64,000 bases of DNA from Scenedesmus sp. PABB004 (GCA_014905635.1 JABVCE010000004.1:1054001-1118000), one strand, 5' to 3'; numbered from the stretch's first letter, positions 19,049 to 64,000 are shown. Translations and numbers: made by a program. Notes: generated from the letters alone by a model not told the origin.

Positions 19049-19619
19049 TCACTTGCCCGACCCGAGCAGCTGCCCCACGATCGCCACCGTCTGCGGCGCG
19101 CGCCGGGGTGTCCCAGCGGCTCAGCGGCGGCGGGGCGCGCGTGCGCGCGGGGGCCGCGGCACGCACGCCTGCCCGCCATGGCCGCGCCGCCGCGCACCTG
19201 CCAGTACTTGGCCGCGCAGCGGTCGATGCAGCTGCTCTCGCCCACGCTGAGGATGCCCTCCTTGTACGGCTTGGCCGAGCACTTCTCGTGACAGCTCGCC
19301 ACCATCCTGCGGGCGCGGCGCGGCCGTGCGCGCCGCGCGTCAGCGCCCGCCGGCGCTGCCGCTGCAACTGCCGCCGCGGTGCCGCCGCGCTGCGACCACC
19401 GGGGTGCCGCACCTGTTGAGCAGCTCCACGCGATACTCCAGCTCTGCAGGCGGGGCAGCGGCGGCGGCGCGGTCGGCGGCAGCAGCGGCGGTCGGCCGGC
19501 GGCAGCGCTGCTGCCGGCACCGGCCTGCGGCGGAGCGCGCGGCGCCTCCCGCGCGGCGCACCGGTGGCGGCCATGGCCATGGCGGACGCCGCGGCCTGGG
19601 CGTCCTCCTGGGAGCCCAT
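19049..19619 (-). CDS. TIM10: Mitochondrial intermembrane-space small Tim chaperone Tim10
   Basis: [20 protein letters not shown]...[18 protein letters not shown] with twin CX3C motif across 4 exons. Confidence 0.93.
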
Positions 19620-20030
19620 CTCGCAGCCGGCGGCGCGGAGCGGCGGGCGGCGGGCTGCGCTGTGCTCTGCTCTGCCGCCTGTCGTCCGGAGGGAGCGCGT
19701 GGTGAGGCAGTGCGCAGCCCGCGTTGCCCCGCGGCACGCACGGCTGCGCCGCCGCCTTGGGCTTTGGCACGCGGCTGCGTCGCGCCTTGCCGGTCGCGCC
19801 TCTCGGTCGGCTGACCGCGACGACAACCTGCAAGGCAATCGGTGGGCCGCGCCGCTTGGCTGCGGCGGCCACGGCGGGGGCCATCGGCCGCCACGCGGCG
19901 CGCGCGCAGCACGCGGCCGAGCGAATTACACGCAAGTGCCGGCGCATCGCTGCGCCCCTCGCTGCGCCCCACCACGGTGGCCGGGCAGTCCGATTGAGCA
20001 GCGCGCCCTTGGTCCGGGCGCCGCTAGCGC

Positions 20031-21995
20031 TCAGCGCCGCGCCGCCTCGGCCGCGGCGGCCGCCTCGGCGACCGCGTCCGCGCAGTCCGCCATGCCCGCG
20101 TCGCGCAGCTGCTCCACGAGCGCCTCCACCTCGGCGGCCTGGATCGCGTACGGGCTGTACGCCTGCCCCGGGAACAGCCCGTCCACGACCTGCGCGGAGG
20201 GCAGGCGCCGCGGGCCGTCGCGGTCGGCGCCGGCGCGCGGGCCGCCGCCGCCGGCCGGCGCGCGCGCCGCCGGCGCCGCGTCCCCGCAAAGCCGGCGCCC
20301 GCACCTCCTCGCGGTACTGCACGAGCGCGCGGTTGATGGACTCGCCGACCTCGGCGTAGCGCTTGCAGAACTTGGGCGTGACCTTGGCGTGGTGGGGGTG
20401 GGTCATCATGCCCAGGAGGTCGTGGTACACCAGCACCTGCGCAGCAGCAGCAGCAGCGCGGCGCGGGGCGGGCCGGGGCAGGGGCGGCGGGAGGGGCAGG
20501 GACGGCACAGCGCGGCGCGGCGGGGGCGCGTCGGCGGCGCGCGGCGGGCGGCGGGCAGCGGGCGGCGGGCGGCGGGCGGGCCGGCGCGGCGCGGAGGCGG
20601 CGCGCGCCTGGCCGCTGCACTGCGGCCCCGCGCCGATGCCGATGGTGGGGATGCGCAGGGCCTTGGTCACCGCAGCCGCGATGGGCGCGGGGATGCACTC
20701 CAGCACGAGCGCAAAGCACCCGCTCGCCTGCGGCGCCGGGCGGTGCGGCGGGCGGGCTCGGCGTCCTGGCCAGGCCGCGCCGAGGCGCGGCCGGGTGGCG
20801 CCGGCCTCGCCGCCGGGGCCGCCGCGCCGCACCTGCAGCGCCTTGGCCTGGTTGATCACGCGCAGCGCCTCGCTCGCGACCTGCGCCTGAGGCCGGAAGC
20901 CGCCTGCGGCGGCGGCGGCGGCGGCGGTCGAGCCGTGCGCGGCGCTTGAGCGCGGCGGCCGCCGGCGCCGCTGCCTCGCATGCGCACGCGCGCGCGCGCG
21001 CGCCGCCGCGCACCCAGCACCGACACGCTCTGCGGCGTGAGCCCCACGTGCCCCATGACCGCCACGCCAGCCTCCACGATCGCGCGCGCCGCCTCGACGC
21101 GCGCAGGGCTGCCGCCTGCGCCGGCGCGGGCGCGGCTCGGCCGCGCGCCCGCCGTCACAGCAGCAGCAGCACCAGCACCAGCAGCCGCAGCTCTGCACTA
21201 TCCCGCGCCGCCGCCCCTCCGTCCCGCGCGCCGCTGCGCCGCCACGCACCCTCGAGCTTGACCGCGTCCATGCCGCCCTCCTTGAGCATGCGCACCGCGC
21301 TGCGCACCGCGTCGGTCGCGCTGAGCTCGTAGCTGCCAAAGGGGAGGTCGCCGACGAGGAACGCGCGCGCCGCGCCGCGCGACACGGCCTTGCAGTGGCT
21401 GAGCATGTCGTCGAGCGTGACCGGCAGCGTCGTGTCGTGCCCATGCACGACCATGCTCACACTGTCGCCCACGAGCAGCACGTCGATGTCCGCCTGGTCC
21501 ACCTGGGCGCGCGCGCGCGCGCCGGCCCGCGGCGGCGGCGGGGAGGCCTCGGCGGGGCGCGCCCGCGCGGCCCAACCGCCGCGCCCGCCGCGCCACGCCG
21601 CGCCGCGCCCGTCGTGCCCGCCGCGCCGCGTCGCGCCGCGCCGCGCCGCGCCGCGCCGCGCACGTGCACGGCTGAGGGGTAGTCGTACGCGGTGCACATG
21701 GAGATGGGGACCCCCTTTTCGTACTTGGCCCGCAGCGTGCGCAGCGTGACGGCCTTGCGGCTCGGCTGCGGGCCGGCGTAGACCTGGATCTCGGGGTGCG
21801 CCGACGCAAAGCCCCGCGCGCCGCCCCCACACGCCGCCCACGTGCGCAGCAGGCCGCCTGCGGCCGCGCCGGCGGCGGCGCGGCTCGGCGGGCCGCCGCG
21901 GGCGCGCAACCGCCGCCGCCGGCGGCCGCCGCGCCGCGCGCACCCGCCGCCGCGGCGTGGCCCGCCGCCGCGTGCCGCAGGGCCGCCAGCAGCAT
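20031..21995 (-). CDS. panB: 3-methyl-2-oxobutanoate hydroxymethyltransferase (ketopantoate hydroxymethyltransferase), mitochondrial-type presequence
   Basis: [72 protein letters not shown] on minus strand at 19926-19930. Confidence 0.96.
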
Positions 21996-32340: not shown

Positions 32341-33423
32341 GACGCCGGGGCGGCCTAGCGCCCCATTCCCGTCGACCGTGCGCGCGCCGCGGCGCCTGCG
32401 CGCGGACGCGCTGAGGGCTGCCTGCGGCACGGTGCCTGCTGGGGGGCTGCGGCGCGGCGGGGGCGTGCCTGGGCGTCGACGCGGGGCCGACTGTGGCGGC
32501 GCCGGCGCGCGCGGCGCGCCGGGCCTCGGCGAATCGGGCGCCAAAGTGACGCCATGTAACATATCAGGCGCGCCCCGCGCTCCCCCTTTTCCCTGCGCGC
32601 CTCGCGACGGGTCCGGGCGCTGCGACGCCGCGACCGCTGCGACGCGGAGGCCCGGCGCTGCGCCCCGCGGCCGTGGTCGGCGCGCAGGCCGGGGTCCCTG
32701 CACACCCCGCCCCCCTCTCTCCCGCCGCGCGCTCCGCCGCTCACTCTCGCTCTCGCTCGCCGCAGCGGCTCCTCCTCGCTTTCTCTCGTGCACCAGCCGT
32801 CAGCAGCAGCGCTCCGGACAGATGCGCCGGAGAAAATCGGCGCTTGGGTCACGCGCGCGCAGTGCGGGCGTCTGGTCGAGATACCCCGAAAGCACACAGC
32901 CGGCCGTCCCGGGCGTCCAATTTGACCGGGGGCGTCGCGCCTGCTGGGCGTTTCGTCCGCCGCGCGCAGTGCGCCGGCCGGGGGTTGAGCGGCGCTTCGG
33001 CCGGCGGCGCGCCCCGTCGCTTCATCGCGCCCCGGCCGCGCGCCGCCCCCACACAGAGCGTGAGGGCGAGCGTGAGAGCGAGAGAGCGCGAGGGGAGAGA
33101 CGGCTGCCACTCCCACCGCGGGCAGCCAGCGCCCACCGGCGCTCGCTCGCGGCTCCCCGGCGCCCGCCGCCCGCTCCACGGGCGTTCGTTGGCGCGGCAG
33201 GTCGACGTGGCGGCAGGCGGGTCAGGGTGCGGGCCAGGAATGCACGCTGCGTGAGGCCGACGAACGATGGGTAGCGCGGAGCGAGCGGTGAGCGGTGGCG
33301 GGCGGCGGGGCCGCGAGGGTGGGTTTGGGCGGCCGGAGGCGGGCCGCGACCGGCCATGCGGCCCCGCGCCGCGCGCCGCCGGCTCAGCGCCGCCGCCGCC
33401 CGCCGCAGGCGCCGCCGCCCTGG

Positions 33424-36031
33424 ATGGCCCTGCACAGCGCGGCGCGCGGGCTGCTGCTGGCGTGCCTGGCGTGGGCGGGCCTGGTGCTGGGCCTGGGCAT
33501 CGCGATCAGCGGCGCTGCGCCGCCGTGGCTGCTGGCGCTGCCCCGCAGCGCGGCGGGCGGCTGGGCGGCGGCCGCGGCCGTCTCCTGGCTCGCGGGCGAG
33601 TGCGCGGCGCGCCTGTACGCACCGGCGCGCCCGCGCAAGCAGGGCCGGTCGCCGCGGCCGCGCGCGGAGGCGGCAGCGGCAGCGGCCCCCGGCACGCCCG
33701 GCGGCGCGGCCGCGCCCGGCGCCGCGGCGGCGCCGCGCGGCCCGCGCGGCAGCGCGGGCGGCGCGGCCGCGGGCGGCGCGGCGGGAGCGGCGGCCGCCGC
33801 GGCCGCGGCGGCGGGGCTGCCCAGCCTGGGCGTGCAGCGCCTGCGCCGCTTCTCGCTGCGCAAGTCGGCGCCGCGGCAGGCGTACAGCGAGGCGCCGGCG
33901 CACTGCGGCGTGGCGCTCGTGCTCTGCGTCAACGCGAGCCCCATCGACCAGGCGGTCGTGAGCGCGCTGCTCGGCGGCGAGGCCTCGCTGAGCCTCGCGT
34001 TTGCGGGCAGCGGCCAGGCCGCGCTCGACGCGGTGCTGTGCGGCGCGTGGCTGCCAGACGTGCTGCTCATGGACGTGGCGCTGCCAGACATGCGCAGCAG
34101 CGAGGTGGGCCGCGCGCCGGCCGCGGCCGTCCCCGCCGCTGCGCGCTGCGCGCTGCGCGCTGCGCGCCGCGCACGCGCGCGCACTCACGTGCCGCCCACG
34201 CGCGCCCACGCGCGCCCGCCCGCGCCACAGGTGACGGCCGCGCTGCGCGCCGTGTACTCGCCGGCGGAGCTGCCCATCGTGCTCATGAGCTCGCGCAGCG
34301 GCGAGGCCGACATGCTCGCCGCGCTCGAGGGCGGCGTGAACGACTTTCTGATCAAGCCGATGCGCCGCACCGAGCTCCTCGCACGCATCAACAGCCAGGT
34401 GCGCCAACAGCCCGGGCGCACGCGGCCGGCCGCCGCCGCAGCCACGGACGCGCCCCGGCGGCGCCGGGGGGCCAGCCGCTGGCGGACGGCTGACGCCGGC
34501 GCCGCGGCGCCCGCGCCCGTCCGCGCCGCGCCGTCGCGCAGCTGATGATCCGGGCGAGCGTGAAGCGCGAGGCCGAGTCGCGCAGCCACTACGAGCTCCT
34601 GGTGCGCATCCTGCCGCCCCACGTGATCCGCCGCCTCGGCGCGGGCGAGACCTGCCTCTCCGACACCCACGACGAGGTGCGGCGCCGCACGCGCCTGCGC
34701 GTGCTGCGCGCGGCTCGTGCGCCCGGCTCGCGCGCCCGGCTCACGCGCCTGCCCGCGTCGTGGGGCCCACCCCAGGTCACCATTCTCTTCAGCGACATCG
34801 TCGGCTTCACCGAGCTCTGCTCCGAGTGGCCGACGCGGGACGTCGTGGAGATGCTCGACGCGCTCTTCACCGCGTTTGACGACCTCTGCGAGACGTGCGC
34901 CCGCGCCCGCGCCCGCGCCCGCGCCGCGTGTGCCGCGCGTGCCGCCCGCCCGCGCGCGCGCCGACCGCCGCGCCGCCGCCGCCGCCGCCCCACCGCCGCC
35001 GGGCCGTAGGCGCGGCGTGTTCAAGGTGGAGACGATCGGCGACTGCTTCATGGCGGTGTGCGGCCACGACGGCTGCGCCGACCACAGCCTGCGCATGGCC
35101 GCGCTCGCCGTCGACATGCTCGCCGCGGCGGAGGGCGTGCAGCGCGCGCTGCTCGCGTCGGGGCGCGGCGGCCCGCGCGTCGCGGTGCGCGTCGGCCTGC
35201 ACACGGGGCCCGCGATGAGCGGCGTGGTCGGCAAGAATCGCCCCCGCTTCTGCTTCTTCGGCGACGCAAGTGCGTCGCCGCCGCGCACGGCGCGGCCGCG
35301 GCCGCGGCCGCGGGCTGTGGCTGGCTGCAGCGGCGGACTGGCCGCCGCGCGGCTCAACAACACGCCGCCGCGCCGCGCGCCGCCGCAGTCAACACGGCGA
35401 GCCGCATGGAGTCGTATGGCTTCCCCATGACGGTCCACGTCAGCGACGCGTGCGCGGCGAGCATGCGCGCGGGCGCGGGCAGCGGCGAGCTGCCGTGGGA
35501 GCTGCTCGACCTCGGGGAGCGCTACATAAAGGGCAAGGGCGTGATGCGCACGCACCTGCTGCGGGTGAGCCGCGCGGGGGCGCGCGCGCTCGCGACAGGG
35601 GGGCCGTCGCCCCGCGCGCGCCGCCGCGCGCCGCGCCGCCCGCCGGCCCGCGCGGCGCCCGACCCCGCGCGCCCTCCGCCCCGTCGCCGCAGGCCGGCGA
35701 GTGGCTGCCTGCGCTGTGCGCGCACCGCATGCGGCAGGAGGCGGGCGCGCCCACGCACGACAGCAGCACCTGCAGCACCAACAGCCCCGTCGCGGCCGCC
35801 GCGGTCGGCTTCCCCGCCGGCACCGGCGAGCAGCGCCTCACCCTTGCCCAGGCGTTTGACAGCCAGGACGACAGCCAGGACGACGAGGAGGCCCGCCTGC
35901 TCGGCCTCTGCTCCGGCGGCGTCCTGACGCCGCCGCCCAGCCCCGGCGCGCGCGTGTCGGCCTGCGGCGGCCCGGGCGCGTGCGGCGGCCGCGCCGAGGA
36001 CTCGGCGCTGTTCTTCAGCCGGCCGCCGTAG
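33424..36031 (+). CDS. Membrane-anchored response-regulator receiver + class III guanylate cyclase
   Basis: Two hydrophobic N-terminal segments. REC domain LPDVLLMDVALPDM...LPIVLMSS...NDFLIKP. Cyclase ILPPHV...VTILFSDIVGFT...FKVETIGDCFM...RVGLHTGP...PRFCFFGDAINTASRMES...IKGKGVMRTH. The E and C specificity residues indicate GTP. Confidence 0.92.
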
Positions 36032-41065: not shown

Positions 41066-43915
41066 ATGCTGCTCTCCACGCTCGCGCGGCAGCAGGGCCC
41101 GCTGGCCCAGCTCGCCGTGCGGGCCTTTGGCAGCGCTGCGGTCGAGGTGGCGAGCGGCAGCCCCTTCCTGCGCTTCAGCAACCCCTTCCCCGCGGCCATC
41201 GACCATACGCCGCTGCTGTCCAGCGTCCCCGACACCGAGGTGCGCGCCGCGGGTGCTGACGGTGGCGGGGGGCGCGAGAATTGGGCGACGCCGGCGGCGC
41301 GGCCGCGGGCGGCGCGCCTGGGGGGCGGGGGAGGGCGCCTCGGATCGGGCGCCGCTCGGCGTGGTAGATCGCCGCCCCGCGTGCGCGCCTCGCCGCGGCG
41401 CGTGGCGCACCGCGACGGGGCCCGCCGTGCCCACGCGCAGGTGTCCACGCTGGGCAACGGCCTCCGCATCGCGACCGAGGCCAACCCCTTCGCGGAGACG
41501 GCCACCGTGGGCATCTGGATCAACTCCGGCAGCCGCTTCGAGACGGACGCCAACAATGGCACCGCCCACTTCCTGGAGCATATCCTGTTCAAGGGCACCA
41601 AGGCGCGCGCCGGGCGGCAGCAGCAGCGGCAGCAGCGGCGGCAGCAGCGGCCGCGCGCGCGGGCCCAGCGCGGGGCTGGCGCGGCCGCCGGTTCGGCGGC
41701 GGCGCAGCGGTGGCAGCGGCGGCGCGGCGGCGACAGCGGCGGCGCGGTGGCGCGGCGGCGCAGCGGCGGCGGCAGCCGCGGCGGCGCTCACCCGCGCGCG
41801 GCGCCGCCCGCGCGTGCGCGCGCAGAGCCGCACGGTGAAGGACCTGGAGGTGGAGATTGAGAACATGGGCGGCAGCCTCAACGCCTACACCGGCCGCGAG
41901 CAGACCTGCTACTACGCCAAGGTGGCCGCCGGGCGGCACGCGGCAGCGGCGGCGCCGGTGGCGGCTGCGGCAGCAGTGCGCCAGCGGCGGCAGCGGTCGC
42001 GTGCGGAGCGCGCACGCCTCGCAGCAGGAGACGGCGCAGGGCAGCTACGCCAGCAGCCGCGTCCCAGCAACCGCCACGCCTCCCGGCTGGTGGCAGCCGC
42101 AGCGCCGCCGCCGGCAGCAGCCCGGGCGCCCGCCAGCAGTCAGCCCCCTGCCCGCCCGCCGGCCCACCCGCGCACTCGCTCATGCACTCACGCACGCACG
42201 CGCGCTGCTGCCGTGCGTGTCCCAGGTGATGAAGAAGGACGTGGGCAAGGCGGTGGAGATCCTGGGCGACATCCTGCTCAACTCCAAGCTCGACGAGGGC
42301 GCGATCGTGCGCGAGCGCGACGTCATCCTGCGCGAGATGGAGGAGGTGCGGCCCCGCCGCACGCCCAGCGCACATCTCCGGCGCGCGCCCGCCTGCGGCG
42401 GCGAGCGCGCGCGTGCGCGCACGCACGGCGGCGGGCGCCGCAGCGGCGGGCGGACGGCGGCGGGCGCCGCCGCAGCGGCGGGCGGCGTGGCCGCGCGTGC
42501 TCACACGCATGCTCACGCGCGTCGCCGCGCGCGTGCACAGGTGAACAAGCAGACGAGCGAGCTCGTGTTTGACCACCTGCACGCGACCGCGTTCCAGCAC
42601 AGCCCGCTCGGGCGCACGATCCTGGGGCCCGAGGAGAACATCCGCAGCATCAGCCGGCAGGACCTGGTCGACTACATGGCCGCGCACTACCGCGGCCCGC
42701 GCATGGTGCTCGCCGCCGCGGGCGCGGTCGACCACGGCGCGCTGGTCAAGGCGGCCGAGAAGACGTTTGGCGCCGTGCCGGACGAGACGCCCGACACCAG
42801 CGTCGCGGCGCTCGTGGCCAAGGTGCGGCGGCGGGGGGCAGCCGGCGGCGGCGGCGGCTCGCTGCTGGGCAGCGGCGCGCGCGGCCGCCCGCGCCCGCGC
42901 TCATGCGCGCACCGCCGCGCCGCCCGCCCCGCCCGCGCCGCGCGCGCCCCGCGCCGCCGCCAGGAGCCGGCGATGTACACCGGCTCGTCGGTCATGGACC
43001 GCCACCCCGACACGGCGCAGTGCTGCGTCGCGGTCGCGTTCCGCGGCGCCGCGTGGACCGACCCCGACAGCGTGCCGCTCATGGTCATGCAGACGATGCT
43101 CGGCGGCTGGGACCGCAACAACACGAGCGGCAAGCACGCGGGCAGCCTGCTGACGCAGAAGATCGCGACCGACGAGCTCGCGGACGCCTACATGGCGTTC
43201 AACACCAACTACCACGACGCGGGGCTCTTCGGCGTCTACGCCGTCACCGACCGCGACCGCAGCCACGACCTCAGCTGGACGCTCATGTGCGCGGCGCGGG
43301 GCGCGCGGCGCGGGCCCTGCCGCCGCAGCGGGGAGGCGCGGGGCGGACGCGGGGCTGCGCCTGCGCGCGGGGGCGTGCTTGTTGCCGTCCGCCGCGCTCA
43401 CCGCTGGCGCCCGCTGCGCTTCGCTCTCCCTCCCTGCCTCCCTCCCTGCCTCCCTGCCTCTGCCCTGCCAGGAACGAGATGACCAAGATGTGCTACGAGG
43501 TGAAGGAGGCCGACGTGGCGCGCGCGCGCAACCAGCTCAAGGCCAGCCTGCTCTTCCTGCAGGACTCGAGCCAACGTGAGCGCCGCCGCAGCGAGCGACT
43601 GCCGCCGCGGCCGCACGCCCGCACGCCCGCGCCGCCGCCGCGCCCGCGCACACGCCCGCGCTGCCGCCGCACGTGCGCGCGCGCGCGCGCGCAGACGTGG
43701 CCGAGTCGATCGGGCGCGAGCTGCTCGTGTACGGGCGGCGCATGCCCAAGGCGGAGATGTTTGCGCGCATCGACGCGGTCGACGCCGACACGGTGCGCGC
43801 GGTGGCCGACCGCTTCATCTACGACCAGGACGTCGCGATCGCGGCGGTCGGGGACACGCAGTTTGTGCCCGACTACAACTGGTTCCGCCGCCGCACCTAC
43901 TGGATCCGCTACTGA
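41066..43915 (+). CDS. MPPB: Mitochondrial processing peptidase beta subunit / complex III core 1 (M16B)
   Basis: ATVGIWINSGSRFE...NGTAHFLEHILFKGT (HxxEH), LNAYTGREQT, RERDVILREMEE, FNTNYHDAGLFG, YNWFRRRTYWIRY*. Confidence 0.96.
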
Positions 43916-57422: not shown

Positions 57423-57793
57423 GATGGCGTCAGCTGCGGGAGTGCCGGCGCGGTGCGATCATCCGGCTGCGCGGACGCGAACTGCGCCGCCGTCGCGCTG
57501 CTGCGCGCGCGCGGGCCATGGAGCGGACGCCCGCGGGAACGTGTCGGCCGATGGTGAAGCGGAGTGATGCGGCGATGGAGCGCGCCGGGAGGCTCGCAGG
57601 GCCGCCAGAAACGCGGGGCGGCGCCGCCGGCGCGCGAGCGTCAGCGACGCTCTGGCCGCCCTCCCTGCCGCCCTGAGCTGCCCGCCGCCGTGGTCAGAGC
57701 GGCCTTCAGTCACAAGCGCCTCAATTGACCCCTACCGCTCACCGCGCGCCCTCAGGCGCGCCCCGCGGGCCGCGGGCGCCGGCGTTGACCGCC

Positions 57794-59195
57794 ATGGCGT
57801 CGTCGCCGCCTGAGGCGCAGGAGCCGCGGCGGCCGCGCACGAGCGTCGACATCGCCGTGAGGAGCGCGCACGACCACCTGGCGGAGGCGCTGGCCGACAT
57901 GGAGGCGCTCGGCATCGTCACCAGCCTCGCGGGCAAGGTGCGCGCCGCCGCTGCTCTTCCCGCGCACGTGCGCCCGCTGCGCGCGGCCGCCCACGCCGCG
58001 CGCCGCCCCCTGCAGATTGTGGGCGGCGTGGCCGTGAGCCAGTCCTACTACGCGCACGTCCTGCAGACGGAGGGCCACAGTGAGGCGCCGCCGCCGTGCC
58101 AGCTCCTCATCGCCCGCGCCCAGCGTGGCGGCGGCGTGACGATGCTGCCGGCGCAGCAGGCGGCGCTCGAGGGCGGCGAGGCGGGGCTGCCGCGCGAGTC
58201 GCCGGTGCTGTCCAAGATCATGTCGCCCGCCGCGCTCGCGGAGCTGCACTGGGCGCGCGTGCCGGCGGTGGCGATCTTTGGCTGCTTCGTCGCCGACGAC
58301 GACGGTGCGGAGGTGGCGCAGAGGCAGCAGCGGCGCCGCACGGGCGCCTCGCCGTCCCCGCCGTGCGCGCACAGCGCCGCCACCGTCCGCGACCGCCGCG
58401 GCCGCGCCGCAGAGCTGAAGGAGGCGGCCGCGGCGGGCATCCCGATCAGCCCCAGCATGACCGGGCCGCACCCCGAGGAGCTCATGACGCAGCTGGAGGT
58501 CTTCTTCAAACAGTTCAAGTACCCCGACAGCAAGTGCTTCATCCTGTGAGCCGCCAACCCGCGGCGCGGCGCACGGGGTCGCCGCTGCGCACGCACGTGG
58601 GGCCAGCCTGCTCGGGGCCTTGCGCGGGCCGCAGCTGCCTGCCCGGCCCCGCACGCGCCCCGCCCACGACCTGCCCACGCCCCGCGCGCGCCCCGCCCGC
58701 AGGCGCGACTGGGGGTTCCTCATCTTTGGCGCCGATCTGGCCGACGCGGTGGCGACGTTCAACGACCAGCTCAAGGAGGCCCTGGTTGCGGGCGCCGAGG
58801 GCGGCGACAGGCTGCCCGGCGACGGCGACGGCGACGGCGCGCCCGCCGGCGCGCCCGCGCGCGCGAGCGCCGACGGCGGTGGCGCCTCTGGCGGCGGCGC
58901 CGCGACGCCCAGGGGCCTGCACGGCGCGCTCGCGCACGCGTTCCGGCGCCTCGGCGCGCACGTGGGCATGCTGCGCACGCAGAGCCTGCCGACCGACGAG
59001 GGCGGCGCCGGCGACGGCGGCGCAGGCGTGCGCAGCCTCAAGGCGCCCGGCGAGCGCGGGCCGGTGTCGGAGCCGAGCAGCCCCATGATCGGCGCCGACC
59101 TGCCCGACAGCATCCGCGTGCTCAGCACGGTCGCGCACCGCCAGAGCAGCGAGTACCGCGTGCCCTCCTTCGCGGTCGGCCTCAAGCCCTGGTGA
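57794..59195 (+). CDS. Uncharacterised protein, possibly a degenerate class II aldolase/adducin-like fold
   Basis: Four exons with clean GT-AG joins. C-terminal KCFILRDWGFLIFGADLADAVATF resembles the aldolase II HG...G.s..eA end motif but lacks the His. Confidence 0.6.
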
Positions 59196-59429
59196 CGACG
59201 GGGTGTCGCGGTGGTGTGGGGAGGGCGCGCCGCGTGCTGTGGCGGCGGTCAGCGCGCGGCGGCGTGCGCGGCGGCGTGCGCTGGTGGCTTGGTGAACTCA
59301 ATTTATTCTTCCTGCTTGCCGCGGGACCCGTGCGCCGGCTGTGTGGGTGCGCGCCGGAGGCCGCGCGGCGGCCGGGCGGCGCGGGCACTGCGGCGCTCAA
59401 CCCCGTGCGGCGCAGTTTGTGCGCGCATG

Positions 59430-59843
59430 GGCGTGCTCCCCGGCCTCGCTACCGCCGTGGGAGCGCCGGCCGGTGGTCTCAACACCGGCGGCTGGGGGAT
59501 GGGGGCTGCCGGGGCGCCCCGGGGGGCGCCCCGGCGCCGCGGGCGCGCGGCGCGCGTGCGCGGCGCTGCCACCGCCGCGCGCGCGCGCCGCCGCCCCCAA
59601 CACCGACCATGGGCATCCTCTGATCGCCGGCCGCCTGAAACAGGCCACAGCGGCGCGAGGCATGACGGTTTGGGACCGGCCCGCAGGTCGGTGCCCCGCG
59701 AGGGGTCCCCCCCACCCGGAACGGGTGACAAGGCGAGAAACGCACGCGCACACGCCTGACCTAACCTGGCAACACAACACAACAGCAAGAGGCCTTTTAA
59801 CGTCCTGCCCAGGACGGAGAGCGCAGCGCACCGCACACGCCGC
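59430..59843 (-). ncRNA. Candidate Fanzor omega-RNA (fRNA) scaffold and element 3' end
   Basis: Directly downstream of the Fanzor stop and dense in stems: 59801-59816, 59713-59727, 59672-59709, 59633-59645, 59508-59535, 59469-59489, 59435-59464. Boundaries unknown. Confidence 0.6.
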
Positions 59844-61655
59844 TCACGCCGGGGGGTCCACCGCGGCGGCGGCCGCCTGCCGGAACGCGCCGGCGAGGCG
59901 CGCGCCGCCCGCCGTGCCGCGGCCGCCGCGCAGCAACTCGTGCAGCGTGAGCGCGCAGATGTTGCGCGCCGCGTTGTCGTCGCGCGGCGCGACGACCGTG
60001 CACCCGGGGCACTGCACCAGACCATAGATGCCCCGCAGCTTCTCCACGCGCGCCCCGCAAACAGAGCAGGTGATGCTGGTCCGGTGCTCGTCCATGAGCA
60101 CCGCGGCGACGCGCCGGCGCGCGTAGTACGTGCGCAGCAGCGCCAGCAGCGCCTGCCGCGGCGGCCCCGGCCCCGAGATGCAGCCCCCCATGCCCAGGCT
60201 GGCGTCCCCGATGCCCAGCACCACCGCGGGCAGGTCGGCGGGCAGGCGCGCGTGCTGCCGGACGCGCCCGCGCACAAAGACCCGGCCGTATGCAGTCAAC
60301 TGAATCGCCGCATGCAGCGCGCGCTGCTTCAGCCCGTGCTTCCGCAGCCGCCACGCACACTCTGCACGGCACGCAAGCAAGCTATATGCGAATGCATTGT
60401 CCAACACATGATGCACCCGGCCGTTGCGCCACGCCCCGGCGGCGGCGACGCTCGTGCCCGAGTAGGCAGGCACGCGGTTCAGGCAGGCATGCACGCAGTC
60501 GCCGCCGCCGGGCGGGCGGCGGTCGTACCGCCCCGGCCGCCCCGGCCGCCCCTGCTGCCACAGGCAATGCCGCTCGATCCCGCGCGAGTCGCGGTGCGCG
60601 GCGGTCTTTATTCGGATGATGCGCTCCGCCTCGTAGCGGCGGCCGTGGTCGCCGCGGTGGCGCGGCGCGTTGGGGCAGCGCCGCTGCGCGATGCGGCGGT
60701 GCGCGACACGCGTGCAGCCCGGGCCCTGCCGCCAAGTCGCGGCGCATATCATGCGCGCCCGGCCCGGGTCGATTCCAACTATGCGCACGCCCGCGTGCAC
60801 GGCCGCGGCCGCGCCGCGCAGCGCGTGCCCCGGCGGCAGGCCCTCCACGCCGCGCAGCTCGCACGGGTCGAGCGGCAGCGCGTCGAGCGCCGCCTCGTCG
60901 GCCACGCCGTGCGGCGCCAGCGCGTCGCAGAGCAGCCGCCGCGCTGCCTCCACGCCCGCGCGGTGCTCTGCCGCGCGCTGCGCCGCCTTGGCGGCGCGCG
61001 ACTGCTGGCCGCGGCGCGGGGCGGGGTCGGCGGCGCCCTCAACGCGCACGCGCACGTGCAGCGCCGCCAGATCAAACGTCACAGAGCCCGCGAAGCGCGT
61101 GTTGGCGTGCAGCACGCCGCGCGCGCGCCCGGGGCGCCGGCCAAAATCAAAATATGCATCCCAAACGGGATCGTAGCCCCCGCCCTCTTGGGTCGGCGGT
61201 GGCGGCGGCGGCGGCGGCGGCGGCTGGCCTGCCGGCTGGCCCCCCGCGGGCGCCCTGGCCTGGCGCGCGCGCAGCGCCGCGTCCAGCGCCTGCATGCCCG
61301 TGGTGGACAGGTGCAGGTGCTGGGTGCCGTACTTGGGCACCGGCGCCAGCGTGAAGGCGCGCCGCTTGGGCAGCGCCACGCGCGCGGCGTGCCGCGAGCG
61401 CAGGCCGCGCAGCACCTTGCACGCGCCCGTGACCGCGACGAGCGCGTCGGGGTGCTGCCCCGCGCCGCCGGCGCGCTGCGGCGGCTGCGCGCCGCCGCTG
61501 CGGCCGCCGGGCGGCGCCGGCGCCGCGCCGGCGGCGGTCGCCGCAGCCAGCACCGCCTCGAGCGTCGCGCACACCGCGTGGCGCCAGCCGGCCGAGACAT
61601 CGCGACGCAGCGCCGCGACAGCCGCCGCCGCCTCCTCGGGCGTGCGCGGCGCGCG

Positions 61656-61712
<57 letters not shown>

Positions 61713-64000
61713 GCCGGCGGCGCCGGCGCAGCGCGACCCTGCGCGGCCGCTGCGGCGGCCAGGTGGCCGCGCGCGGCCGCCAGGTGGCCGCGCGCGGCCG
61801 CCAGTCGGGCGCCGCAGTCGCCCAGCAGCCGCGCGCCCTGGTCGCGCGCGGCGCGCGCGGCGTCCGCCGCGCGGCGGGCCGCGTCCGCGTCGGGCGCCAC
61901 CGCCGCGCCGTGCGGTCGCGCGAGGGCCCGCTGGTGCTGCACGAGCGCCGCGTCGCGCTCGTGGTGCTGCGCCATGGCAGCCTGCCACTCCGCCTCCACG
62001 GCTGCGAGGTCGGCCCCCACCGTCGCGTCGCCGGCGGCGGTCAGCGCGGCCAGCGCCAGCCGCAGCCGCTCCGCGGCCGCGGCCGGCAGCGCCGCGCCCG
62101 GCCCCTGGCCCGGCGCCGCGCCCGGCGCGGCGCCTTGCCCCCGGGCGCGGAGCAGCCGCGCCTCCTCTACGGCCAGCCGGCGCCGGAGCGCCGCCGCGTG
62201 CGCGTCCTTGCGCTGCAGGCGGCGCAGCCGGTTGCGGGCGTGGCGATCAGGGACCGTAGCGCCGGCGACCTCCCGCTGCAGGCCCTTGAGGGGTTCCTTG
62301 CGCAGACGCACGGCCGCCTCGCTGGCATCCACGGCGGCGCGCAGGCGCTGCACCGCCGCCTCGAGCTTGCCCAGCTCGCGCGCCCGCTGCAGCTCGCGCA
62401 GGCGCGGCTCCTGGGCGCTGGCGTCCAGCAGCTTGGGGGGCGCCGGCGGACGCTGGCCGCGGCTGCGGCTGCTGCTGCTGCTGCCGCTGCCGCTGCCCCC
62501 GCTGCTGCCGTCCAGCGCCTCTGCCAGCGACTCGACGGCCGCCGCGAGCGCGCCGGCCGACGCCGGCTCCGGGGCCGCCCCGAGCGACGCGGCGCGGCGC
62601 AGCATCGCCTCCAGCGCCGGCCGCGCCGCCGCGCCCTGCTGGGCTGCCAGCGAGTCCGCGAGCCGCGGCGCGCAGGCAGCAAACATGTGCTGTTGGCCGA
62701 GCATGACGACAAAGTCGCGCGCGACGCGGCGCGCCATGGCGTCGGCGTCGCCCTCCCGGTACGCCAGGCCCTCGAGCTGCCGGGCCAGCGCCGCGCGCCA
62801 GGCGTCGTAGGCCGCGTCGTGCTGCTGCCGCGCCGCCGCGCCCGCGCCGTGCGCCAGCGGCTCCGACGGCTGCGGCACGAGCGGCGCGCCCCCTGCCTGC
62901 GCGCCCGCGTCCGGCGCGCGCGGCATGCCGCTCCGCGCCCAGTCGAGCACGCGGCCGTGCTTGCCGGCCGCCTCGTCCGACTCCCAGCGCTGCAGGCCGG
63001 GCGTCGCCTGCGCCCCTGCCGCCTGGCGCGTGCGCGCCGCGCCGGCCGCGGGCGCGCGCGCCTCGCCGTCCGCCGCCGCCGGGAAGGGCTGCTCCAGGTG
63101 CAGGCGCATCCGCGCGAGCATGTCGCGCATCATCGCCATGGCCAGCCGCAGCCGGCCGGCGTCCTGGCCGTCGCCCGCCGCTGCGGGCACCACGCCCTCG
63201 CCCGGCTGCAGCACGCCCTGGCGCTCCCAGAGCAGCGGCGACGCGCTGTACAGCAGCGCCGCGCCGCCGGCGATGAGGCAGTCGCGCGCGGCGCGGCTGG
63301 GCGTGCCGGCGCAGCCCGCGGCAAACCACGCCTGCAGGGCGGCGGCGTCGAGCGCCTTCTCCAGGCGCTGGCCGTCAGCGAGGTGGAGCTGCATGTTGGT
63401 GTTGTACAGCTCCGCGAGAGGGTTGAGCAGGTGGTGGTGCAGGGTTCCGGTCACCCAGGCCGGCAGGGGCACGCGCTGCAGCTCGTTGACGCCGCAGGCC
63501 TGCTCCAGCGCGTGGCGCAGGTCGCTGGACAGGCCGCCGCCAACGCGCCGCCAGTTGCCCTGGCTAAAGAAGTTCATCAGGTCGTACACGAGCGGCGCGC
63601 CGCCGCACGCGGCCTGCAGGTAGCAGGCGCACGCGGGCGGCGGCGGCGCCGGCTGCTGGGCTGGCGGCGCTGCGGGCGGGGGCTGCTGCTGCTGCGGGCC
63701 CTGCTCCTGCGCCGCCGGCTGCGGCGGCGGCTGGCGCGTGTCCAGCCCGTACAGCCGGCTGCGCAGCGGGCGGGCGGGCGGGCGGGCGGCGCGACTCGGC
63801 GGGCGGCGCGGAGGAGGGGGCGCAAAGCGCGCGGGCGCGCCCCACCCGCGCGCGCGCGCACCTCGCCCCATACACGAGCGCCACGTGGTGCGCGTCGCGG
63901 CCGAGGATGCCCAGCCGGCTGTAGGCGCACACGAGCGCCTCGAGGTAGGGGACCACCTCTGGCTTGCGCACGGCGCCGCGCAGCGCGCAGACGCGCACGC
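59844..64000 (-). CDS. Fanzor1 (TnpB-derived RNA-guided endonuclease), intron-containing, start outside the window
   Basis: RuvC-I RIVGIDPG (D codon 60768-60770), VVLGIGDA, rearranged RuvC-II LMDEHRTS (E codon 60087-60089), zinc finger CSVC...CPGC, RuvC-III PRDDNAARNI (D codon 59979-59981). WED-like FTLAPVP...HLHLST and FAGSVTFD upstream. Intron 63759-63861. Confidence 0.93.
61658..61711. repeat. Perfect (CTG/CAG)18 microsatellite inside the Fanzor gene
   Basis: 18 uninterrupted ctg units. Confidence 0.95.

Follow-up and report, generated by a model that had tools for sequence, protein, structure and literature searches.

A probable Fanzor1-type nuclease gene, or a very recent relic of one, in the nuclear genome of a highly GC-rich eukaryote

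Introduction

Among the RNA-guided DNA endonucleases of the TnpB/Cas12 family, Fanzor1 proteins make up the eukaryotic branch. They are carried by eukaryotic transposons of the Helitron2, Mariner, Sola, IS4 and MuDR types, and Fanzors are being developed as compact genome editors. In green algae they have been known since 2013 from Chlamydomonas, Volvox and Chlorella, and later from Auxenochlorella, Chloropicon and endogenous giant viruses. To our knowledge, only one green-algal Fanzor enzyme has been assayed so far and it gave no cleavage. Descriptions of intron-bearing green-algal Fanzor1 genes go back to 2013 (PMC3627910, PMC10530073). Those of Chlamydomonas reinhardtii are described as having 5-10 exons with EST support (PMC3627910; PMC10530073), and for the C. 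reinhardtii protein CrFNuc formation of an RNP is reported, with cleavage not detected in the in vitro assay given there (PMC10530073).

Two characterized proteins are of particular relevance here. SpuFz1 of Spizellomyces punctatus (PDB 8gkh, 9ceu-9cez) is a protein of 638 residues encoded by a single exon, with flanking 30-nt inverted repeats and a defined omega RNA; its catalytic set is given as D383/E541/D606 (PMC10432273). ApmFz2, or ApmFNuc (mimivirus L79; PDB 9b0l), is a member of Fanzor2, a group whose proteins are described as shorter, as closer relatives of TnpB and as associated with viruses and IS607 elements (PMC10530073). According to the same source, Fanzors are marked by the replacement of the canonical RuvC-II Glu by an inert Gly or Pro, an alternative conserved Glu lying about 45 residues downstream; this residue was essential in the assays reported, mutation of Glu467 in ApmFz2 abolishing cleavage (PMC10530073). 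A glutamate relocated in this way, its former site being taken by Gly or Pro, is not confined to Fanzor1 and also occurs in a TnpB subset named 'TnpB2', for instance in TvTnpB (PMC10530073). A more general signature for TnpB and Fanzor proteins is the motif of Bao and Jurka, D-X(125,275)-[TS][TS]-X-X-C4-X(5,50)-RD (PMC3627910).

Here we analyse a locus at one end of a 64-kb window, by which we mean the whole stretch of 64,000 nucleotides examined. It is highly likely to represent a Fanzor1-type gene, or what such a gene has very recently left behind, in eukaryotic nuclear DNA of very high GC content. The host resembles a green alga, to judge from its GC content, the type of its intron donors and the appearance of the relatives.

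Results

The nuclease core

The Fanzor core, comprising the end of REC, the C-terminal WED strands, RuvC and the zinc ribbon, occupies 59847..61655 of the minus strand in one uninterrupted frame. Residue numbers below refer to P0001, the last 600 codons of this frame (61649-59847, minus strand). Following the direction of translation, the core carries the RuvC-I motif GIDPG with Asp294 (60776-60762), which is conserved in relatives, GIGDAS (60215-60198) where a canonical TnpB has its RuvC-II Glu, and MDEHRTS with the alternative catalytic Glu521 (60095-60075). Two residues past the latter comes CSVC (60068-60057) and then CPGC (60011-60000), the second half of the C4 zinc ribbon, so that the whole block from MDEHRTS to CPGC covers 60000..60095. 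The RuvC-III motif PRDDNAARNI with Arg556-Asp557 (59987-59958) precedes the TGA stop codon (59846-59844). All of these motifs lie in one and the same minus-strand frame, just as the first-pass annotation of this DNA had listed them (GIDPG, DEHRTS followed by CxxC, a second CxxC, RDDNAARNI).

The motif of Bao and Jurka is found here as Asp294, 229 residues, Thr524-Ser525, two residues, Cys528/531/547/550, five residues and Arg556-Asp557. The rearranged RuvC site is also present, with GIGD at residues 479-482 and Glu521 about 40 residues later. The annotation had read the Glu beside the zinc finger and the GD at the old Glu position as the mark of Fanzor1; both features are there, but they mark Fanzors generally and TnpB2 too.

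That the nuclease lobe contains no stops is true, since the frame holding the motifs is open from 62246 to 59847 (800 aa). With a GC content of ~79%, stop-free frames are nevertheless weak evidence: three other frames over the locus are likewise open for 856-1016 codons, and the window holds 292 ORFs of at least 150 aa with 97,037 codons in total. Better evidence of coding comes from homology and from the codon-position GC periodicity, which in this frame extends from about 61655 to the stop codon. A candidate intron within the nuclease lobe (60528-60362) was discarded; removal of its 167 nt would break the frame, while the read-through sequence aligns with relatives. The nuclease half cannot be translated alone because there is no ATG ahead of the WED strands, and structural alignment to SpuFz1 shows the N-terminal WED and the greater part of REC to be missing from it.

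Family assignment

Pfam family PF07282 (TNB / OrfB_Zn_ribbon) matched residues 707-763 of the 800-aa frame above its gathering score (38.9 bits, cut-off 26.3; E 1e-9). HMMER returned 25 matches at E<=1e-3 among 1.84 billion representatives, the best relative (P0002) being 36% identical (E 1e-20), and the description of the protein as a divergent member stands. Alignment of 14 of these 25 matches to the query showed GIDPG, WRLRKH, G-x-G-D/N-A-S, DE-x-R/K-TS-x-x-CS-x-C and DRD-x-NAARNI to be shared by them. Taken together, the motif set and the homology are far beyond chance. Other protein-homologue searches, with the whole of P0001 and with its residues 425-580, gave no matches. Of 489 matches to the pattern among viral contigs, 85 specify related proteins, none of them close, with 25-49% identity over at most ~130 residues of the zinc-ribbon region. 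A metagenome locus (L001) turned out to be a false positive, an 8-residue word being shared within a bacterial-type helix-turn-helix ORF.

A profile built from the family matched ApmFz2 (9b0l), GtFz1 (9cer), PpFz1 (9cf0) and SpuFz1 (8gkh) with E 3e-9 to 8e-8, and aligned over 109-237 positions with the three Fz1 proteins compared with 70 for the Fz2 protein. In this alignment GIGDAS falls on the G(D/N)W strand of SpuFz1, PpFz1 and GtFz1, and the match to SpuFz1 extends from the helix ahead of RuvC-II across the zinc ribbon as far as RuvC-III. ApmFz2 is the best single-sequence PDB match, its zinc ribbon, RD and Glu467 aligning with their counterparts (Glu467 with Glu521), but the alignment is significant only over the last 50-70 residues.

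An AF2 model of the core reached a pLDDT of 58 overall and of 60-87 in the RuvC core. All 12 Foldseek matches at E<=1e-3 were Fanzor or Cas12f chains, and the top four were all SpuFz1 (E 1.6e-6 to 7e-6). With VIA-align, SpuFz1 gave a Z of 13.8 over 234 residues; since AsCas12f (13.2) and TnpB (12.3) come within about 1 of this value, for model residues ~221-594 of a model with pLDDT 58, Fz1 cannot be told apart from related proteins by fold alone. The match to SpuFz1 begins only at SpuFz1 residue 357, and identity in the structural alignments is 14-19%, with the three catalytic positions of SpuFz1 all present. The profile search and structure prediction against Fanzor1, TnpB and Cas12 that had been proposed for this locus thus came out positive for the core frame (PF07282, Fanzor PDB profiles, SpuFz1 as best fold match). 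These data support the conclusion that the locus, situated in eukaryotic DNA that contains introns, encodes a TnpB homologue of the Fanzor type. Its probable placement in Fanzor1 follows the best structural and profile matches rather than a tree.

Host setting

The DNA around the locus is eukaryotic nuclear DNA, with spliceosomal introns and eukaryote-specific neighbouring genes. The window encodes a Sad1/UNC (SUN) domain, and its PanB and M16 peptidase genes consist of exons in different frames bounded by GT..AG (in one case GC..AG). The earlier description of the nuclease as flanked by ordinary host genes is not confirmed: only its 3′ flank lies within the window, the ORFs closest to it (57677-59192, plus strand) seem to be coding and match no family, and the nearest host gene recognized by Pfam, that of the M16 peptidase, ends near 43.5 kb. 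No second copy of the nuclease is present in the 64-kb window, and no transposase or helicase family was found among the 42 ORFs scanned between 44.8 and 59.3 kb, i.e. over ~15 kb downstream of the gene.

The upstream half and its intron

A fragment that looks like an exon runs off the window edge (63862..64000, minus strand; codon-position GC 0.47/0.97/0.82 for codons starting at 63998-3k). As it contains no Met, it implies that the gene starts beyond 64000, with its 5′ end outside the window. The fragment is followed by a 103-nt candidate spliceosomal intron, GTGCGC...GCGCAG (63861-63759, minus strand), whose donor matches four of the six delimited host-gene introns and whose CAG acceptor is that of all six. 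Periodicity drops to 0.06 within it, compared with 0.24-0.41 in coding DNA, both flanks are periodic, and its removal joins the flanking frames in phase. This intron had been called clean; with its host-like ends, low periodicity and in-phase join it is a plausible candidate. Alternatively, there would be no intron and translation would start at an ATG (63871-63869) in the downstream frame.

If the candidate intron is accepted, it leads into a coding region of 699 codons (P0027; 61658..63758, minus strand), which is read in a different frame from the nuclease half and has strong periodicity throughout (periodic frame 63757 to 61661). The predicted product is helical, with an abundance of Ala, Arg and Gln. 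Searches, including one with residues 42-240, detected no homologue, Fanzor or other protein, and the all-helical AF2 single-sequence model (pLDDT 44) was too poor to be used for a structure search. P0027 is most likely the N-terminal half of the nuclease gene, presumably its WED-N/REC part, to judge from adjacency and strand.

The frame change

The two large frames differ, a point that the first reading had left unaddressed, and the switch falls in a (CAG)18-(CG)n microsatellite (61711-61640). The perfect (CAG)18 tract (61657..61711, minus strand; Tandem Repeats Finder: period 3, 18.3 copies, 100% matches) encodes polyGln in the upstream frame and is located just before the frame change, which takes place in a (CG)n-rich zone where periodicity switches frame (61640..61660, minus strand). 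A continuous frame requires that 2 nt be skipped, 1 nt be added or an 80-nt intron (61737-61658) be removed. The donor of this candidate (61737, GTCGCG) is the sole in-phase GT pairing with a CAG acceptor at the break and it is a poor one, given that the six host introns start with GTGCG (four), GTGGC (one) and GCGCG (one). Another in-phase intron (61988-61750) was set aside on account of its coding-like periodicity of 0.30. A scan of in-phase donors and acceptors and of periodicity thus revealed no convincing, clean intron across 61660-61640. We note that the start of the best relative, P0002, roughly coincides with that of the second frame. The frame change could be a 2-nt gain or a 1-nt loss, either genuine or an assembly error, or it could be an unusual intron.

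The 3′ tail

A non-coding tail extends from the stop codon to the convergent neighbouring ORF (59196..59846, minus strand, stop codon included). By analogy it would be the place to expect a guide-RNA scaffold and the end of the element, both putative here. It contains a 7-bp hairpin (59816-59801, minus strand) followed by TTAAAAGG. RNA folding of 59900-59560 gave a z-score of -0.29, i.e. no structural signal, and the tail had no Rfam match at E<=1.

Variation in metagenome contigs

Variants were collected from contigs of four freshwater-metagenome DNA runs that had been chosen with the nuclease gene itself. The repeat at 61647-61725 was left out of the comparison, which hence does not cover the frame break. 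At least 32 sites vary. Of the 32 listed, 14 are synonymous compared with 27.5% expected, a weak excess (one-sided p 0.035) in that some sites share a codon and seven further differences lie outside the 32. None of the 32 listed sites creates a stop or hits a catalytic motif. The contigs diverge more in the 3′ tail than in the adjoining coding part. Fifteen listed contig joints had sides of only 20-25 nt and were regarded as spurious. Among the pieces listed, none from a whole contig covered 56001-59585, to which we attach no meaning as the runs had been selected with the gene.

Discussion

Among the described systems, the Fanzor1 genes of C. reinhardtii (CRe-1, 2, 3; CrFNuc, 'Fanzor1c') resemble the present one, as far as their descriptions go, in being nuclear and intron-containing, in lying in a genome of green-algal type and in having the same motif order and the relocated glutamate. 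They differ in that those genes reside in non-autonomous Helitron2 elements of which there are many copies, while the 64-kb window has a single copy, and neither Helitron nor another transposase family is visible in the 15 kb downstream of it. Compared with SpuFz1, the present locus has a putative upstream half of 699 codons and at least one candidate intron, and no defined ends or RNA. TnpB2 proteins share the relocation of the RuvC-II glutamate (PMC10530073) but are prokaryotic, short and intron-free and reside in IS200/IS605 elements together with TnpA, in contrast to the eukaryotic setting observed here with its SUN domain and spliceosomal introns.

The last 600 codons form one periodic frame with the C-terminal WED strands, the RuvC domain with Asp294, the relocated Glu521 and Asp557, and the CxxC...CxxC zinc ribbon. 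We propose that the 699 upstream codons, which follow a plausible intron (63861-63759), most likely encode the N-terminal half of this gene, and that the reading frame changes after them at the microsatellite. By homology with SpuFz1, ApmFz2 and TnpB, the protein would bind a guide RNA made from the 3′ end of its own element and recognize a short motif beside a matching target, and a single RuvC site would cut both DNA strands. The cutting half looks complete, but nuclease activity is unproven because the assembled gene is not one continuous frame. The first-pass designation as intact, spliced and potentially active is not supported in that form for a nuclease half that has no ATG, no WED-N and little of REC, whose join to the upstream frame lacks a convincing intron and whose gene has its 5′ end off the window. 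That the locus is a translatable full-length gene has somewhat less than an even chance, and we lean slightly towards a disabled or truncated copy.

How the two halves came to differ in frame can be viewed in several ways. A complete, correctly spliced and active Fanzor1, in which the break is an intron in the mRNA or an assembly error, is a serious possibility that we would still not wager on. Neither half has a stop or a frameshift, periodicity is strong in both, every catalytic and zinc residue is present and the upstream intron has consensus ends. The break itself sits in a slippage-prone microsatellite, where the 80-nt candidate or a 2-nt skip would give a continuous frame and where the start of P0002 could mark a shared exon boundary. 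It is less easily reconciled with a GTCGCG donor unlike the six host donors, a missing 5′ end and an N-terminal half devoid of Fanzor homology. A recently disabled copy seems rather unlikely, if not to be dismissed: slippage in the (CG)n next to the (CAG)18 would truly have added 2 nt to a single Fanzor1 gene, or removed 1 nt from it, the rest being undecayed. The frame change lies within ~20 nt of the microsatellite without any intron-like loss of periodicity on either side, and partial Fanzor loci are frequent elsewhere, full-length ones being given as 19 of 42 in S. punctatus (PMC10432273). The same data do not distinguish this from an assembly error, and in the variant contigs there are no additional lesions but a slight excess of synonymous sites.

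The upstream protein might also have nothing to do with the nuclease. In that event the 3′ end of a host gene unrelated to it, encoding a Gln/Ala-rich protein, would have received a 5′-truncated Fanzor1 element, and no nuclease N-terminus would ever have existed here, which we consider improbable. The upstream protein is indeed unlike any Fanzor, detectable homology to relatives begins at the break, and the CRe-1, 2 and 3 elements are described as often 5′-truncated with intact 3′ ends and target-site duplications of ~7-19 bp (PMC3627910). A 13-nt direct repeat occurs exactly at the break (61652-61640) and again ~280 nt past the stop (59566-59554). As a target-site duplication this repeat was rejected as not significant (empirical frequency 0.06-0.09), a shared word of at least 13 nt being found in 5.8% of 4000 random placements in the window and in 8.7% of 1500 CG-rich ones. 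Moreover, its second copy sits in a (GC)n tract, it is not preceded by a T-rich target, no periodicity is seen in the 24 codons needed to finish the host ORF, and an empty site is absent among the metagenome contigs listed. Finally, the gene could be a domesticated Fanzor1, present at a single locus without a transposase partner and fused to a helical Gln/Ala-rich N-terminal extension of ~700 residues, which purifying selection would maintain in wild freshwater populations for a function of the host and not for the spread of a transposon; this we regard as very improbable.

The locus is a divergent further member of the Fanzor family, of a kind already well described in green algae. Since the kind is known there, the assayed relative showed no cleavage, the frame is discontinuous and the 5′ end lies out of reach, we value the locus as an addition to the catalogue and as a follow-up candidate rather than as something surprising. 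Each divergent, catalytically complete Fanzor is a possible new enzyme, and the present member is remote from database proteins and comes from an extremely GC-rich genome.

Results

GC content around the locus is ~71-84% (0.71-0.84 in 500-nt windows); the 64-kb window contains 292 ORFs of at least 150 aa (97,037 codons in total), and between 59.8 and 64.0 kb four different frames are each open for 800-1016 codons. At such GC, open frames carry almost no information, and the length of an ORF does not help to recognise genes in this window. We therefore used homology and codon-position GC as evidence, genuine coding frames giving values of ~0.8/0.6/0.95; this measure separates coding frames from introns well in the window. 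On the minus strand, coding periodicity is found in one frame from 64000 to ~63880, is absent from 63861-63759, occurs in a second frame at 63757-61661 and is back in the first frame from ~61655 to the stop codon at 59846-59844.

The last of these segments carries the nuclease half (P0001, 61649-59847), whose sequence identifies the locus as a genuine and divergent gene of Fanzor1 type, in which this half is predicted to be catalytically complete by residues. Pfam PF07282 (Cas12f1-like TNB zinc ribbon) matches above its cut-off (38.9 bits, E 1e-9). When the 601-residue core was run with HMMER against the full set of 1.84 billion representative proteins, only 25 relatives scored E<=1e-3, the closest having 36% identity (E 1e-20). 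Aligned with 14 of these 25, the query has in common with them GIDPG, a WRLRKH helix, G-x-G-D/N-A-S, DE-x-R/K-TS-x-x-CS-x-C and DRD-x-NAARNI, and the profile from this alignment matches ApmFz2 (9b0l), GtFz1 (9cer), PpFz1 (9cf0) and SpuFz1 (8gkh) at E 3e-9 to 8e-8, Cas12f and TnpB ranking after the solved Fanzors. The AlphaFold2 model of P0001 averages pLDDT 58 (60-87 for residues of the RuvC core, <50 for the WED region), and SpuFz1 chains are its top four Foldseek matches (E 1.6e-6 to 7e-6). VIA-align scores the match to SpuFz1 at Z 13.8 (234 residues), a tie within ~1 with AsCas12f (13.2) and close to TnpB (12.3).

Every motif named in the first-pass annotation was found, all within the last minus-strand segment (~61655 to the stop). 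The translated P0001 frame contains GIDPG (60776-60762), GIGDAS (60215-60198), MDEHRTS (60095-60075) with CSVC (60068-60057) starting two residues on, CPGC (60011-60000) and PRDDNAARNI (59987-59958). The Fanzor/TnpB motif as published, D-X(125,275)-[TS][TS]-X-X-C4-X(5,50)-RD (PMC3627910), occurs in P0001 with spacers of 229 and 5 residues. Jiang et al. report that cleavage by ApmFz2 requires Glu467 (PMC10530073), the residue with which P0001 Glu521 aligns residue for residue. The same source describes how Fanzors and a subset of TnpBs lost the canonical RuvC-II Glu to Gly/Pro and gained a Glu ~45 residues downstream (PMC10530073); in P0001, GIGD occupies the old RuvC-II Glu position and Glu521 follows ~40 residues later. 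The earlier reasoning from a relocated Glu was thus correct, but the relocation marks Fanzors generally and not, as had been supposed, Fanzor1 specifically (PMC10530073).

As a splice reference, six host introns with inferred boundaries were delimited by Pfam profile coordinates in the M16 peptidase gene and the PanB (ketopantoate hydroxymethyltransferase) gene, the latter having at least four exons (19190-21750, minus strand). Their donors read GTGCG (four), GTGGC (one) and GCGCG (one), all six acceptors end in CAG, and their codon periodicity is 0.04-0.16 versus 0.24-0.41 in coding stretches. The first delimitable M16 peptidase intron (41603-41825, plus strand, 223 nt) appears to start with GC, not GT (GCGCGC...GCGCAG), its exon ends being inferred from continuity of the Pfam profile (positions 1-52 lie in one frame, 50-81 in the next); alternatively, the donor could be a GT lying 90 nt downstream, which would add a low-complexity insert. 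The intron proposed earlier for the Fanzor gene (63861-63759, minus strand, 103 nt, donor GTGCGC, acceptor GCGCAG) has a periodicity of 0.06, and its removal leaves the two flanks, both strongly coding, in phase. There could instead be no intron, translation starting at ATG 63871-63869 in the downstream frame. Given its consensus-like ends, lack of periodicity and in-phase join, we grade the segment, from the DNA, as a probable intron; if it is real, the true start would lie beyond the window, since exon 64000-63862 has no Met.

In four DNA runs from a single freshwater-metagenome study, short contigs (depth 2-13) match parts of both halves (59586-64000) at ~97-99.7% identity outside the repeat at the frame break. 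Either the organism itself or close copies of its gene must therefore be present in nature. The contigs represent two or more variant types, and one contig has an insertion of 21 letters, a number divisible by three, at 62243-62263. Among the 32 variant sites listed, some of which share a codon and beside which there are seven further differences, 14 are synonymous (27.5% expected; one-sided p 0.035), none creates a stop and none touches a catalytic motif, a pattern that is a weak hint of constraint. The sole metagenome 'relative' (L001, 6001-6405) was a false positive, a bacterial-type helix-turn-helix ORF that has a single 8-residue word in common with the query.

There is no second copy of the gene in the 64-kb window, and the 42 ORFs scanned at 44.8-59.3 kb gave no match to a transposase or helicase family. 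The convergent neighbour (57677-59192) is coding-like with no family match; recognised host genes lie farther off (HSP20, SUN domain, PanB, Tim10, response regulator with cyclase, EamA and M16 peptidase). The Tim10/DDP zinc-finger match is ~1.4 kb beyond PanB on the same strand and in the same long open frame. At 33292-35006 (plus strand), response-regulator receiver and adenylate/guanylate cyclase domains on neighbouring exons look like a two-component-type cyclase gene, a kind common in green algae. The 3' tail of the Fanzor gene has a short hairpin (59816-59801, minus strand), no significant fold (z -0.29) and no Rfam match. Between the two convergent genes lies a (GC)n-like tract (59534-59591), near which metagenome contigs tend to stop, containing a 22-nt inverted repeat (59547-59568 and 59570-59591, 91% complementary).

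Discussion

The first-pass description of the gene as intact and spliced is not established, as the core lacks a start codon, the two halves lie in different frames and the break between them offers poor splice options. No ATG precedes the WED strands in the core frame, and the P0001 model matches SpuFz1 only from SpuFz1 residue 357 onward (VIA-align). Since SpuFz1 is reported to have N-terminal WED residues at 21-25 and a REC domain at ~96-269 (PMC10432273), a working protein needs upstream sequence. The 699 upstream codons (P0027, 63758-61658) are in a frame other than that of P0001; comparison of P0027 with the PDB, with word-indexed proteins and with the 25 P0001 relatives detected nothing related to it, and its single-sequence model is all-helical and unusable (pLDDT 44). 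The frame switch is confined to ~20 nt (61660-61640), where a perfect (CAG)18 ends and a (CG)n run follows. This polyGln repeat (61657-61711, minus strand) and a 21-nt unit repeated 2.9 times in tandem (61745-61804, minus strand) are slippage-prone and lie within the coding-like frame immediately upstream of the change.

The break may be a real indel, an assembly error or an unusual intron. The sole in-phase GT donor there able to pair with a CAG acceptor, at 61737, reads GTCGCG, and splicing from it would take out 80 nt, mostly CAG repeat; a further in-phase candidate intron (61988-61750) has a periodicity of 0.30 and looks coding. Skipping 2 nt at the break likewise restores the frame. A minor rival is that the break represents the 5' end of a 5'-truncated Fanzor1 insertion flanked by a duplication; the green-algal Fanzor1 elements CRe-1, 2 and 3 are reported to be often 5'-truncated, with 7-19-bp flanking duplications (PMC3627910). 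One copy of a 13-nt direct repeat does coincide exactly with the break (61652-61640), the other lying 280 nt beyond the stop (59566-59554), but this second copy sits in a (GC)n tract, random placements in the window gave shared words that long in 5.8% of 4000 trials (8.7% of 1500 when CG-rich), and the 24 codons needed to complete the host ORF show no periodicity. That the locus encodes a full-length, active enzyme we consider possible, if on balance somewhat doubtful.

Fanzor1 genes with 5-10 exons were described in 2013 in Chlamydomonas Helitron2 elements, and Fanzors also in Volvox and Chlorella (PMC3627910). CrFNuc ('Fanzor1c') is reported to have bound its RNA with no cleavage in vitro (PMC10530073), Fanzors are described as the most abundant repeat in Auxenochlorella and are present in Chloropicon too (PMC12633428), and an endogenous giant virus of Chlamydomonas carries them as well (bioRxiv 10.1101/2024.09.03.611062). 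This kind of gene is therefore already known from green algae, and what is new here is a divergent member.
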